From Octopus vulgaris (Eukaryota), in contig OX597828.1 of assembly GCA_951406725.2 (NCBI GenBank), positions 68,014,001 through 68,078,000 of the forward strand: a DNA stretch of 64,000 nucleotides, read 5' to 3'. A program made the position numbers and the translations under genes. Below the pieces are notes generated by a model. The model did no database searches, was not told the DNA's origin, and saw only the letters and a list, made by a program, of their open reading frames with translations. Numbering within the stretch: the stretch's first letter is position 1; each line of letters starts with the position of its first letter. Positions 2,840 through 17,146 of this stretch are shown here, one piece after another.

Positions 2840-4020
2840 TAAGCTCATCAAGTATGAAATTTGTAGAAAAGAAAAATTTCCTAATGTTCTATAAATACAA
2901 GGGATAGTTTTATTCATCAAAGTATGCACCCATTTTGTCAATATACTTTTACCATTTCAGCAGTAGTTAGTCCAGCCTGGAACTATAGAAGCTTGGCAAT
3001 CTAGAGTCAATAAAATCTTGGAAGGCCTGTTTTACAGTATCGTTGGAATTAAATTTTTTTCCTACCAAAAAGTTATCCAAATTCTGGAAGAAATGGTAAC
3101 CAGTAGGGGAAAGATCAGGTGAGTATGGTGGAAGATGGAGAACTTCCAAATCCAACTCCTGTAGTTTCACCAATGACATTTTTGTCTTGTGTGGTCTGGC
3201 GTTGTCTTGCAATAAAATAGGATTGGATCTGTTGAGTAATTTAGGCTGGGGTTTTTTTTTTTTTTTGTAAGTTTTTGCATCATTTGATCCAGTTGGCTGC
3301 AGTGTTCTTCAGCCGTGATTGAAGAGCCAGGTTTAATGAAGTCATAATGGATCACCTGTGCCAGACCACCAAACACACCAGCTTCTTTTGATGAATTTTG
3401 GTTTTTGAACTGTGTTTTGGTGGCTCGTCTTTGTCCAACCACTGTGCTGAATGTTTACAGTTGGTGTATTGGATCCATTTCACATCACATTCGATTAAAA
3501 AAGGATTCATTTTCGTGATGGAAAAGCAGCATAATGCAGGCTTCCAAACATTACTGTTTCTGATTTTCCTTTAGTTCATGTGGAACCCACTTATCCAACT
3601 TTTTCACGTTACTGATTTGAAGTAGGTGAGTCAATATTGTTTGTTTGCTGATACCAAACAACGATAATTCACAGGCACTTTGAGACTCGACGGAGGGTTT
3701 CAGTTCGTCATATCCATCTTTGTTTCTGGTCGACTGTGTTACTCATTTGTGAGGTCAAAGTTACCAGAGTGAAATTTTGCAAACCAATTTGATACTGTCT
3801 GCTGTATAATAACATTAGAATGAAATACGCCATTAATATTCTGAGCTGTACTTCCAAGAAAGAACTCATATTTCAAAACTGTACGAATTTCTGACTTATC
3901 CATCTCTAAACAAAATTAGCAAAAAACGATTTATAAATACTTTATAAAGTGCAAAATGAGTTAGAATAAAGAAATTTATGCTTTCTAACAAAAAATATTG
4001 TTAAAAAATAATAATAGCAC
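2840..4020 (-). mobile_element. Decayed mariner transposon (Hsmar1/cecropia-like transposase pseudogene)
   Basis: Translated fragments QDNARPH...LHLPPYSPDLSPTGYHFFQNLDNFL and IHYDFIKPGSSITAEE, with frameshifts and stops. Boundaries approximate. Confidence 0.85.
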
Positions 4021-5207: not shown

Positions 5208-6135
5208 TATGTAATAAAAAAAATAGAAGGCACATCTATTCTCAATGACACTGAAGTAATGAGTGCACCAGCCTGTTAGTTCAACCACCCACTCTAAAAT
5301 TATGAAACAGCTGTGTAACAAAAAGGAAGGCAGGGAGAAATAGCGTTCATTTTGTTCAACAAACAACTGTTACAAGGTCACTCAACTTGCTAAAAATAGA
5401 AGTCAGAACTCACAAATCAGTCTGCTACCTTAAATAATACAGCTTTGGATAGGCAACAGCTTTCATTAGAGTTGTCTTCAACTCAAACTGATGTGGGACA
5501 ACACAACATCCACTTTCACTTGAAGCCATCCAAAAAATGCCTCTACACAGGTGTACAACCTGTTAGAAGTAGCAGCCAAATTTCACTGAAAGCACAATGG
5601 ACTCCTTTATATATAACTACTACATGTATATATACCTCTAATCATTGCATGTATATACATGTAACTCATGCATAAATCATATGTAAAAACGACCCCCTTT
5701 GGTCACAAATATCTAGAAAGTTCTCCGAGGCACAAGTTGAAACAAGGTTGTTTGTGGAAAACCAGTAGTTGCCCATGCATACCAGTTTCCCCTTTCCACA
5801 CCACTGGTGTTATCCAAGAGAAAGGCAAAGGTCAATACAGCTTAGCACCAGTGACATCACAACTCATTTCTACAGCTGAGTGAAGCAGAGCAACATAAAA
5901 TAAAGTGTCTTGCTTAAGAACATAACACACAGCCCAGTCTGGGAATCTAAATCACAGACTTATGATGGTAAGTCTAACACTCTAACGACTGAGCTACCTT
6001 CACTATAAATCATATGTATTTAGCACTAATTACTAAAATATCTAATGTGTAGTTTGAAGTGGGGCTTACATTTCACATTGGGACCTATTTCCATTTTTTT
6101 AGAGGTTTGACTACTAACCAGCCAGAGAATTTATG

Positions 6136-6205
6136 TTTTAATTTTATTTTTTATTTCATCTAGTTTCAGCTCATGAGCTGTGGCCATGCTGGGGCATTGC
6201 CATTT
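6136..6205 (-). mobile_element. CR1-type LINE 3' terminal stem-loop and A-rich tail fused to U6
   Basis: AAATGGCAATGCCCCAGCATGGCCACAGCTCATGAGCTGAAACTAGA matches the LINE end at 12777-12822 at about 40 of 47 positions (manual alignment). Confidence 0.9.
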
Positions 6206-6313
6206 AAAAAAATATGAACCGCTTCAAGAATTTGCATGTCATCCTTGCGCAGGGCCATGCTAATCTTCTCTGAATCGTTCCAATTTTAGAATATGTGCCG
6301 CTGTAACTAGTAC
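6206..6313 (-). pseudogene. U6: Full-length U6 snRNA retrocopy
   Basis: Minus strand reads GTACTAGTTACAGCGGCACATATTCTAAAATTGGAACGATTCAGAGAAGATTAGCATGGCCCTGCGCAAGGATGACATGCAAATTCTTGAAGCGGTTCATATTTTTTT, colinear with metazoan U6. The ACAGAGA box is mutated to TCAGAGA and there is a 1-nt deletion in the ISL region. Confidence 0.95.
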
Positions 6314-6867
6314 AATTTCTTCACTTACAAGAAATAGCAGTCAATTTCTTCCTCATTGAATCATACCAAGGACACATTAAATAATGTGATGTTACTAGAT
6401 TCACAAGATCCAGAAACAGGGCCCTAAGCACTTAAAAGATTTTGGTGCCCTCATAAAAGATTATTTAATTAAAAAAAAAATAACAACAAACCATGAAAAA
6501 ATTTTTTATTTTTCAAAACAAAACAAAACAGTAAGAGGGAAAATAATGTTTATTTTTGTATAATTCCACCTTAATTATATTTGCAAAGTTTTCTCCTACT
6601 TTTTGGAATTGCAAAGTCTTGGATCAGATCCTCAAAATTAATCTTAGGTAACACATCTGCATCTATATACCTAATAAGGATAAAAGCATCCTGAATATTA
6701 TTTTAGCAAGTTTAAAGTGATTTCTTTTGTGCCGTCAACCATTTACCATTTCTGTGGTTCCCCCCTCCTTCCCTTGATGCCCTAAGTACATGCTTATTTT
6801 GCTCAATGGTTAATCCAATGCTGTCCAGAAAATAAACAGGCTGGTTATTGGTTGGAACCCTTTAGAT

Positions 6868-12766: not shown

Positions 12767-13837
12767 TTTTTTTTTTTCTAGTTTCAGCTCAGAGCTGCGG
12801 CCATGCTGATGCACCGCCGTTTTGTGCTACACTGTTATTGCGACGAACCTCGTCTAATATGTGGCACTTGGTGAAGAATGGAGTTTGATACAGCTACTCT
12901 CATTTGCACCTCTTGCCGTGAGGTAGGTTCATCTGGGACTCTTGACAGTAAGATGACCAGCTTTGATTTAAAAACCGCTACATCTACTTTGTGCAAGTTC
13001 CTCAGACTCTTTGGGAGAATATTAAAAAGCTGTGGGCCCTTGAAACCCAGGCTGTTGCAGAAGCTGGTCCTGAAGCGTGATGGCATTGCTGGGATCTTTG
13101 GTACTATGCAGTGTCGTCCCGTTCTAGCATTGGTGTAGCTTACAATGCCAAAATTTGGCACAATTCCTTCCAGGATCTTCCAGACATATATTACTGCATA
13201 CCTCTCCCGTCTTCTCTCCAGGGAGTAGAGTCTTAGATGTTGCAACCTTTCCCAGTAGCTGAGCTGTTGCAAAGAGACGATCTTCTTTGTGAATCTTCTC
13301 TGGATTGCTTCAAGGTCCGCTGTTAATTTTACACTGGTGGGTGACCATAGCTGTGAGCAGTAATCCAGGCGACTGAGGACGAATGTCCGCCAGAGGACCA
13401 TCATGGTTTCCTTATCTCTGGTTCTGAATGTTATTAGGATCCACCCAGCCAGTCGTCTGCACTTTGTCGCCGTCCTGGTAATGTGCACTTGGAAAGAGGT
13501 ATCATCACTCATGTCGATACCCAGGTCCCTCACAGACTTAGGCTCTGGGATTGAAATTCCCTGTGGACCGGTGTATCCTGTAAATTTAATATTCAGTTTT
13601 GGATGCTGGTAGCGCAGAGCCTGGAATTTTTCAGCATTAAACTGCATATTATTATCCTCAGCCCATCTGTAGATTGAGTCCAACTCCTGCTGCAGGTGTG
13701 CAACATCGCTGGGGTTCTGTATTTTCTGCGAGACTTTCGTATCGTCTGCATAGCTGGCCAGAGTGGCTATCCGGGCATTTGAGGGCATATCTGAGAGAGC
13801 CACTATAAAAAGCAGTGGTCCCAAGACAGTGCCCTGT
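12767..13837 (-). mobile_element. 5'-truncated CR1-type LINE with open RT C-terminal ORF (12835-13836) and poly(A) tail
   Basis: QGTVLGPLLF...YADDTK...VRDLGI...SRLDYCSQLWSP...LEAIQRRFTK...SYWERL. 329 codons without a stop, short 3' UTR, and (TA)n on both sides. Confidence 0.93.
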
Positions 13838-13839
13838 AC

Positions 13840-13919
<80 letters not shown>

Positions 13920-15316: not shown

Positions 15317-17146
15317 TACAGTATTTGCCGGTGTATAAGCCACACCCATGTATAAACCGCAACCCCAATTTTCGGTCCCCGACGGGGGAAAAACATAGGA
15401 GAAACCGGGAAATAACTGGGGCTAATGAAAAGGAAGTAATGCTGGATCAATACAAACTTCAATATTATGTGTGTTTCACACTTAACCAACATTTCCGACT
15501 GCAATCGTTGATATTCATAATTATTAATGGAAGAAGATGAAGTCCAGGCTTTAAATGCAAGACATAATAAGAGAACGTCTTTTTACTATGTGTGTTTATA
15601 TGATTTATTCATATTGTGATCTTTATATTCTTTCTTGAAAATGTGTGGTCCTGTAAAGGACGGACCCTAATGGGTAGAGACTTCATCCAAAGCTATTCGG
15701 CGTCAGACGACCCATTGAAGACCACGTGGAGTTGATCATCTGCATATGCCAGTTCATCCTCATCATCACTGGAGTCAGAAAAGATAGAAGAGATGGCATC
15801 GTCTTCCCACAAGATGTCATCTTCTGTGCCGTCGAGCGCATTGGATATGCAGCACTTCAGGAAAGCCCGCTAGATGGAATCTTCTCCCAAACCTTCAGGG
15901 TTCACTCGCAGATCATCCCCAAGTCGACTTTATTGTGCACCCGGTCTTTGTCACTTCCGGTGCATTGGCGATCCAATCCTCCCACTGGTGTTGAGACGGT
16001 CCTTAAACAGTTCGTTGATTGCAACATCAAAAGGTTGAAGAAGAGATGTCGTTCCCCCGGGGATCATTGCCACATCGATGTTCAGACGACATATCTTTGC
16101 CTTGGTTTCTTCTGACTTGTAACTCTTTCTCTGATGCAGTCCACTGATGTACCATCCCCACACTATCCGAAGCCGGTCCTCGATGAGTGCCTGGTCCATC
16201 CAGCCTTTCGCTTGGGCGGGACAATGACCCCTGCTGGAAACTTGGCGTCTTTGGGTAATGTCTCCCCTTAAAGACGACGTATAGTGCAAGCTTTCCTCCT
16301 TCAACATCCAAGTCAGCATCACCGTAAAACAGTCCTTCTCTTGACCCGTCGTGACGATTTTCGCTATCTTCTCCACCCCCTCCTCAGCAACAGTTCTCGC
16401 CATCGGAAGATCGAACACGAGAGGAGTCTGGTCTACGTTGCCGATGCGGCTCGGAGGGGGCTGATGCCATTTAGGCAGGTTAACGATAAACCGCTTGAAC
16501 CTCTCGGTCTTCTCGTCGAGATCTTCGGGTGGCCGCTGTGCAAAGTGGGTGCGACGCCTGATAGTCAGATCATGCCTGCGCATAAACCGAAAAGCCTGTG
16601 ATATGCCGGAGAGGAAGTCTCTGACGCCGATGTCTTTGGCAATCTTCTTGACCTCGATTCGGCGGGTGAGTGTCGACACCACGAGTCCGCCAGCCTCTTC
16701 TCCTTCATCCATTCGAGAAGCCCCACCTCCAATTCCGGCCACTACGCCGTCTTTCCCCTTATTGCCTTCTTCTTGGGCATCAACTCGATTGTGTCCTTAT
16801 TGGAGCGCCATCGTTGGACAACAGTTTTGCCAACCCCGAATTGACGGCCCGCAGCACGGTTTCCAAACTCCCCAGCAAACCTGGAAACCGAGAGCTTGAA
16901 GGCAGCTGTGAATGCTTATCCCGGCATGATGACTTGACCGTCGTTGAACTTGAAGAGCGAAGTAGATGAGTCGCATGGAACTTGAAGAGTGGAGCAGATG
17001 AGACAGTGAAGCTAATTACGGTTCAAACAACAGGATGTATCTTGAAAGCTTCCTTTCATCATTACCATTTTCTTTACGTATTTACGTAGGAAATATTACA
17101 AAAAACAAACAAACCGGCGCACTTACAAGTACTTTAAGGTACGGTA
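15317..17146 (-). mobile_element. pogo-family DNA transposon (POGK-like: Brinker-type DBD, CENP-B HTH, DDE_1), frameshifted
   Basis: AFTAAFKLSV..GNRAAGRQFGV..VQRWR; RFMRRHDLTIRRRT; IGNVDQTPLVFD; TTGQEKDCFTVML; IPGGTTSLLQPFDVAINELFKD. Ends TACAGTATTTGCC and TACCGTACC resemble pogo TIRs. Confidence 0.88.

Follow-up and report, generated by a model that had tools for sequence, protein, structure and literature searches.

We identified a U6 snRNA retrocopy that lacks a promoter and is fused to a minimal LINE 3' tail, consisting of two hairpins and about the last 70 bases of the LINE, in the window, the 64,000-nucleotide stretch of the Octopus vulgaris genome analyzed here. Dispersed elements of related structure are numerous, and we estimate a probability of roughly 0.7 that they formed independently of one another: a LINE reverse transcriptase copied the tail only and probably switched next to a nuclear Pol III RNA, at its oligo-U 3' end. 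The first-pass annotation had offered two readings of the element, a U6-LINE chimera and an amplified U6-headed SINE. The former stands, as a U6 retrocopy on a LINE recognition tail with many dispersed relatives, whereas the latter does not.

A complete U6 on the minus strand at positions 6313-6208 is the sole Rfam match in the window (RF00026, model positions 1-105, 92.4 bits, E 1.8e-22). As initially described, it ends in a U-tract (T7) and is followed by the LINE tail with its A-rich end, now resolved into an AAAT linker and two hairpins (Table 1). The LINE-type hairpin CAGCTC..GAGCTG was also correctly recognized, being a perfect inverted repeat at 6180-6167. Hairpin 1 carries two substitutions compared with the donor family (L147, L134, L169). 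In alignments to the genes L040 and L055, the focal U6 is closest to the tandem-array gene variant A, with eight substitutions and one deletion, compared with twelve substitutions for variant B. Both L040 and L055 have an upstream octamer and TATA. The focal copy has neither; such promoter elements had been named as a finding that would speak against a chimera. The element thus has a T-tract-ended U6 joined in sense to a 5'-truncated LINE 3' end and, as in a processed copy, no upstream U6 promoter. It is an ordinary dead chimera, a pseudogene of a known kind, and not a SINE. Inspection of the tail for a hammerhead or HDV ribozyme did not show the cores of these ribozymes, and Rfam reports none in the window; this possibility was therefore rejected.

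Table 1. Features of the U6-LINE fusion and of the related LINE in the window
Feature	Position	Strand	Basis
Whole fusion element	6133-6313		AATTT repeat on both sides
Full-length U6 snRNA retrocopy	6208..6313	-	Rfam RF00026; alignment to genes L040 and L055
U-tract T7, U6 3' end	6206..6212	-	Sequence
AAAT linker, LINE-templated; junction and 5'-truncation hotspot	6202..6205	-	Donor LINE reads CACCAAAT then GGCGG
Tail hairpin 1	6182..6201	-	Fold; comparison with L147, L134, L169
Tail hairpin 2, CAGCTC-AT-GAGCTG	6167..6180	-	Perfect inverted repeat; fold
AAACTAG and A-rich 3' repeat of donor LINE family	6133..6166	-	Identical end in L147, L134, L169
Candidate target-site duplication, left copy AATTT	6128..6132	+	Match of an orthologous contig (organism E) ends at exactly 6132
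Candidate target-site duplication, right copy AATTT	6314..6318	+	5-nt flanking repeat
5'-truncated LINE, sister family, tail type b	12777..13840	-	ORF with RVT_1, E 8.6e-08

The LINE whose end lies at 12777-12822 had been taken as the partner of U6. The focal tail aligns to this end (12822-12765) with 83.6% identity over 61 nt (E 2.5e-11). We rejected the window LINE as the donor since the features of the focal tail match those of a sister family, represented by copies L147, L134 and L169, which have the CCCCAG loop and the ATGAAAT repeat in common with it. Judged by these features, the donor is this sister family, designated tail type a; its identity to the window LINE is 72.6% over 1068 nt. 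A reverse transcriptase is represented by the RVT_1 domain of the window LINE and by a homologous ORF in L153. Its C-terminal motifs suggest that the LINE is putatively of the CR1 type. The tail-a pattern has 3091 exact copies. Further ORFs in the window, at 15951-16796 and 2967-3308, resemble pogo-like and mariner-like transposases in their motifs.

An exact 27-mer of the U6 3' end has 166 matches, and our census covers the first 100 of these. The focal copy is not matched by the 27-mer, and true U6 copy numbers are consequently higher than 166. Seven of the 100 loci form a tandem array with upstream octamer and TATA and no tail (L131; G000 C1, about 139.42 Mb), in which genes with a variant 5' stem-loop are spaced 1.0-1.4 kb apart. 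L055 is a second U6 gene variant with the same octamer and TATA elements. Motif classification identified fused ends at 62 of the 100 loci, with six partner types: 32 are joined to one of four tails alone (tail a 11, tail b 7, tail c 6, tail d 8) and 30 to the 5' ends of two tRNA-derived SINE families (20 and 10). As a background, 9 of 1027 T4+ tracts in the window have any of the six partner motifs within the 40 nt that follow them, and the arrangement of U6 and partner exceeds chance. The remaining 38 ends were classified by eye. Of these, 8-9 are genes, about 10 have their junction inside a repeat, and 3 are fusions to a tail or SINE start that the motifs did not catch; there are also 2 U6-U6 dimers and about 10 inverted duplications, and 4 loci have short A-rich ends.

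The 5' starts of the 62 fused heads (among loci L031-L130) are bimodal: 47 heads begin within U6 nt 1-24 and 15 within nt 58-74, with no start in between (nt 25-57). The second group lies around the internal stem-loop. A third head variant, C (L034, L057, L059, L060, L129 and others), is common in chimeras, and no gene matching it was found among the 100 loci, of 166 matches. In L065/L066, L071/L072, L076, L099, L105 and L122/L123, U6 occurs in long inverted duplications with shared flanks that are centered near the 5' stem-loop. The dimers (L048, L052) are arranged head to tail, and upstream of L048 is what we take to be a tRNA-Lys-like sequence; this arrangement suggests serial jumps.

Elements of nearly the same structure are widely dispersed, with 40 scored matches and 57 exact U6-to-hairpin junctions genome-wide (gapped pattern). 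The tail is shared with the partner LINE, as in SINE families, and one pair, L003 and L021, has the linker and one substitution in common. However, it is highly improbable that the chimeras are an amplified U6-headed SINE family descended from one or a few master loci, as the first-pass annotation had suggested. The copies do not share a uniform chimeric structure comparable to that of SINEU: the same U6 heads sit on any of four tails, on the 5' ends of two SINEs or at internal junctions. Scored hits, exact U6 ends and the exact junction pattern together gave 61 distinct U6+tail chimeras, with 53 different linkers. Together with the six partner types, these heterogeneous junctions are what independent events would produce. 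The changes that copies of a master locus would have in common, as in SINEU, are likewise missing, with at least two shared non-CpG substitutions in 0 of 1431 pairs among 54 heads, 10 of which equal the gene over a 78-nt core. The head variants are mixed among the partners, with no significant association (three variants, 39 typed heads, permutation p=0.24). In addition, U6 lacks an internal promoter, and its T-tract would stop Pol III ahead of the tail. U6 is present on only 3 of the first 71 listed tail-a copies (2 of 70 analyzed together, plus L033). Kojima expects independent template switches to leave many tail-sharing LINE copies of which a minority are switched (PMC4494074), and this is the case here, where tail copies are many and those with U6 few. 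Many copies with an identical junction and shared diagnostic U6 substitutions had been proposed as the sign of a SINE family. An identical junction as a criterion would mislead, because the junction is nearly fixed by the LINE's own 5'-truncation hotspot.

The junction is located 2-5 nt upstream of hairpin 1, the position at which LINE 5' truncations peak and at which U6, U6atac and pre-tRNAs are joined. The start lies no more than 6 nt upstream of hairpin 1 in 43 of 70 tail-a copies and at 7-500 nt in another 13, and the other 14 are longer. In a resample on hairpin 2 only (n=30), which was meant to exclude selection bias and overlaps the first tail-a sample, 21 copies start at -4..+5, 8 begin farther upstream and a single one begins deeper within hairpin 1. 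Tail b shows the same peak more weakly (n=30), with 6 copies starting at 2-4 nt and none at 5-85 nt. Correspondingly, 3-5 templated nucleotides are kept in 44 of 54 U6 chimeras, a count over tails a, b and c. In predicted folds the junction falls within an A-rich linker that is single-stranded. Its position shows some freedom, as about 10 of 100 U6 ends join internal repeat positions (by eye). The sharpness of the peak provides a precise, testable site for an RNA cut or stall. In L160 and L325 the same SINE body, with different end points, occurs just upstream of tail a in one copy and of tail b in the other, which looks like tail swapping at the same junction.

T-tract lengths vary among the chimeras and are mostly 4-9. 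Extra letters are found at 37 of 54 junctions (T70, A49, C27, G9) and are absent from the other 17. The reverse transcriptase cannot be named as their origin, because the C and T may equally come from the terminators of the genes, for example T6-CTT or T5-C-T4; purine-biased non-templated addition was considered as their source and was not established. TA repeats adjoin 20 of 43 short tail copies, and microhomology to TA-rich targets may blur or sharpen the truncation peak of tail-only copies. It would not account for the joining of U6 at the hotspot, because the cDNA end there should not be complementary to the U-tract.

Heads other than U6 are found at the same position. For all 26 exact T6-AAAT-tail sites, Rfam identifies 3 U6, 1 U6atac and 6 tRNA heads, two of the latter (L205 and L217) representing a single duplicated event. 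A further truncated U6 and 5 truncated tRNA ends were recognized by cross-matches, and neither method assigned a head to the other 10 sites. The tRNA heads were called by Rfam and cross-matches, as ARAGORN at relaxed settings gave spurious calls. The heads of L205, L217 and L154, all on tail a, are divergent and tRNA-like (L205 and L217 score 32-35 bits in Rfam; L154 has no Rfam match).

The tRNA-Leu trailer followed by T5 occurs at 39 unique sites, of which 14 are fused. In 10 of these the partner is one of the six motifs, and in 4 it is another repeat (by eye); the 12 tRNA-Leu copies that lie in a gene cluster are all unfused. A cluster of intron-containing tRNA-Leu genes (L391; G000 C29, about 8.82 Mb) is followed by partial copies of the tRNA 3' end with terminator, arranged in tandem. 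The chimeric head L258 and gene L260 agree at 113 of 113 nt, intron included, but have no more than 5 nt of leader in common. L382 is identical to L387 over 119 nt, and L384 and gene L383 have 17 nt of trailer in common. The leader that tRNA heads have in common with their genes is 2-5 nt in general. With leader, intron, trailer and U-tract matching those of real genes, these tRNA heads are unprocessed primary transcripts. A search with one exact pattern returned no mature, CCA-ended copy of tRNA-Leu. Full-length pre-tRNA heads with trailer were observed on four tail types in L258, L263, L273, L286 and L384 (tRNA-Leu), L206 (Ala) and L207 (Ser); L206 has a likely target duplication overlapping the tRNA 5' end. 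Such full-length pre-tRNA copies with a minimal tail have the layout of newborn SINEs.

A control with U2 (one exact pattern) identified 1 junction, compared with 57 for U6. This single case, L348, is a near full-length U2 with a few extra 3' bases and no U-tract, joined to tail a at the hotspot. None of the best 30 U2 family matches carries the tail, and these matches look like genes with shared flanks. The best-30 sample favors intact genes, and the junction pattern was used as the control for this reason. The U2 loci L288-L317 include many near-identical genes that are dispersed over different contigs and have flanks in common; L293 and L300 agree in the upstream flank and differ in downstream type.

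It is very unlikely that the fusions arose in two events, by insertion of a LINE or SINE beside the terminator of a pre-existing U6 or tRNA gene. What such a history has in its favor is mainly the weakness of target-site duplications. The 5-nt AATTT repeat flanking the focal element is by itself no longer than chance. For the 40 of 61 chimeras with non-microsatellite 5' flanks, the mean longest shared word is 5.48 against 5.16 +/- 0.16 in shuffles (maximum 5.72), and 3 shared words of at least 8 nt compare with 1.5 expected; neither difference is significant. However, arrayed genes have not been hit (7 U6 and 12 tRNA-Leu copies), and the octamer is upstream of 0 of 53 U6 chimeras. Many heads are 5'-truncated, including the 15 of 62 that begin at U6 nt 58-74, and the shared leaders of tRNA heads end after 2-5 nt. 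The background rate of 9 in 1027 tracts also speaks against it. The orthologous contig of a relative, organism E, matches the window to exactly 6132, the predicted boundary, and then diverges for 128 further letters, as an empty site would, in a comparison of match limits on the tail side only. The contig of organism B extends into the tail, to 6170, which suggests that the site is filled in that organism.

The heads match real genes, do not have derived changes in common, and in the case of U6 and pre-tRNAs are also joined to the 5' ends of tRNA-derived SINEs. From these DNA products we infer a jump by the reverse transcriptase. The LINE ORF2 protein would bind the tail and begin target-primed reverse transcription, and would reach either the end of its template or a stall at the foot of hairpin 1; the boundary itself would be a cut RNA end or a stall site. 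Most commonly the cDNA would then be joined to target DNA, giving tail-only insertions. Occasionally, a non-templated A could pair with a 3' U, and the enzyme would continue on U6 or a pre-tRNA, so that jumps would start from the tail's 5' boundary or a SINE 5' end and land on oligo-U 3' ends. Non-LTR reverse transcriptases in vitro are described as adding non-templated nucleotides, most readily dATP, and as jumping between templates (PMC8594491, PMC10830420). Although those assays concern other enzymes, the chimeras here look as products should if the enzyme left one template at its 5' end and resumed at the 3' end of another RNA. U6 copies are left without their external promoter and are dead ends. 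Pre-tRNA copies retain internal promoter boxes and are laid out like a newborn SINE, though with a terminator ahead of the tail.

Alternatively, the LINE RNA could be cut 5' of hairpin 1 to leave a 5'-OH, ligated by RtcB to the 2',3'-cyclic phosphate of U6, and retrotransposed as a chimera in the manner of human U6/L1. We regard this as unlikely, if less so than two separate events. U6 and U6atac both occur as heads here, the sharp junction would fit a nuclease site, and 17 of 54 junctions have no extra letters. Less compatible with ligation is the finding that pre-tRNAs with an intact U-tract are common heads and that SINE 5' ends are joined by 30 of 100 U6 ends (the first 100 of 166). Pre-tRNA U-tracts and SINE RNAs are expected to carry 3'-OH and 5'-triphosphate ends, respectively. 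RtcB ligation has been demonstrated in human cells by Moldovan et al., whose account has the enzyme joining cyclic-phosphate U6 to 5'-OH L1 RNA, using U6-OH or 5'-triphosphate partners poorly, and does not exclude template switching for some chimeras (PMC6789731). A reverse-transcriptase jump is favored over ligation because the pre-tRNA and SINE ends are expected to be poor RtcB substrates and because non-LTR reverse transcriptases jump in vitro. The chimera set thereby separates two proposed mechanisms of U6 chimera formation, as heads and partners expected to be poor for RtcB point to jumping in vivo.

A broader model is possible, although we hold it to be doubtful. The LINE tail might be released as a discrete RNA of about 60 nt, with its 5' end made by cleavage or trimming at the base of hairpin 1, and might remain bound to ORF2 and serve as a general adaptor that takes up nascent Pol III transcripts ending in oligo-U. 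The genome would then be a running SINE factory, yielding proto-SINEs of pre-tRNA and tail as well as SINE tail swaps at that position, and would owe its resident tRNA-derived SINE families to this process. To our knowledge, the acquisition of LINE tails by SINEs has long been attributed to template switching, with the intermediates unseen. Here, abundant intermediates can be traced to their source genes, with tRNA heads retaining intron and trailer on a minimal tail. The fixed junction and these products bear on the origin of SINEs, as such a route would build new ones.

U6/LINE chimeras are already known in vertebrates; what is new is the capture of U6, U6atac and entire pre-tRNAs at a fixed boundary of the tail, with SINE-shaped products. 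Our literature searches, with repeat databases and supplements outside their scope, found no published U6 or pre-tRNA/LINE-tail chimeras in a cephalopod and no such hotspot, and a term search of the main text of the octopus LINE paper returned no mention of snRNA or CR1 (PMC9115989). Template switching has been proposed for module exchange in mollusc SINEs, and chimera formation for hagfish SINEs (PMC4758252, PMC7245038). The mammalian U6/L1 chimeras similarly consist of a full-length U6 T-tract joined in sense to a 5'-truncated LINE, include U6atac, and represent independent events (PMC4476161, PMC6789731). In the human examples, however, the L1 is variably truncated and target-site duplications of 6-19 bp are reported (PMC4476161, PMC6789731), whereas here the truncations peak at one point and duplications are short or absent. 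SINE partners are moreover as common here as LINE tails, and pre-tRNAs are captured too.

Also similar are the U6/L2, U6/Mon-1, U6/AnolisSINE2 and U6/RTE chimeras and one U6/CR1-like chimera of platypus, lizard and turkey, which involve tail-recognizing LINEs, short LINE parts, SINE partners and small target-site duplications (PMC4476161). According to the same account, almost all platypus U6 heads are 5'-truncated, in contrast to the 47 of 62 here that begin within U6 nt 1-24, and its description of the U6/L2-type chimeras reports neither a fixed junction nor pre-tRNA heads (PMC4476161). The crocodilian U1/U2-headed SINEs (SINEU) also have an snRNA head, a short retroposon and no internal promoter. 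However, they are described as having master copies, shared deletions and no tail-sharing LINE that could be found (PMC4494074), whereas the LINE of the present chimeras is abundant and their copies stem from separate events. Finally, tRNA/L1 chimeras and the tailless retropseudogenes of pre-tRNAs likewise show LINE machinery retroposing tRNA, with nuclear pre-tRNA as a template (PMC11838501; cited in PMC4476161). The human tRNA/L1 chimeras in that report are tRNA halves and mostly antisense (PMC11838501), whereas those identified here are in sense and are often full-length pre-tRNAs, complete with leader, intron, trailer and terminator, on a minimal tail.
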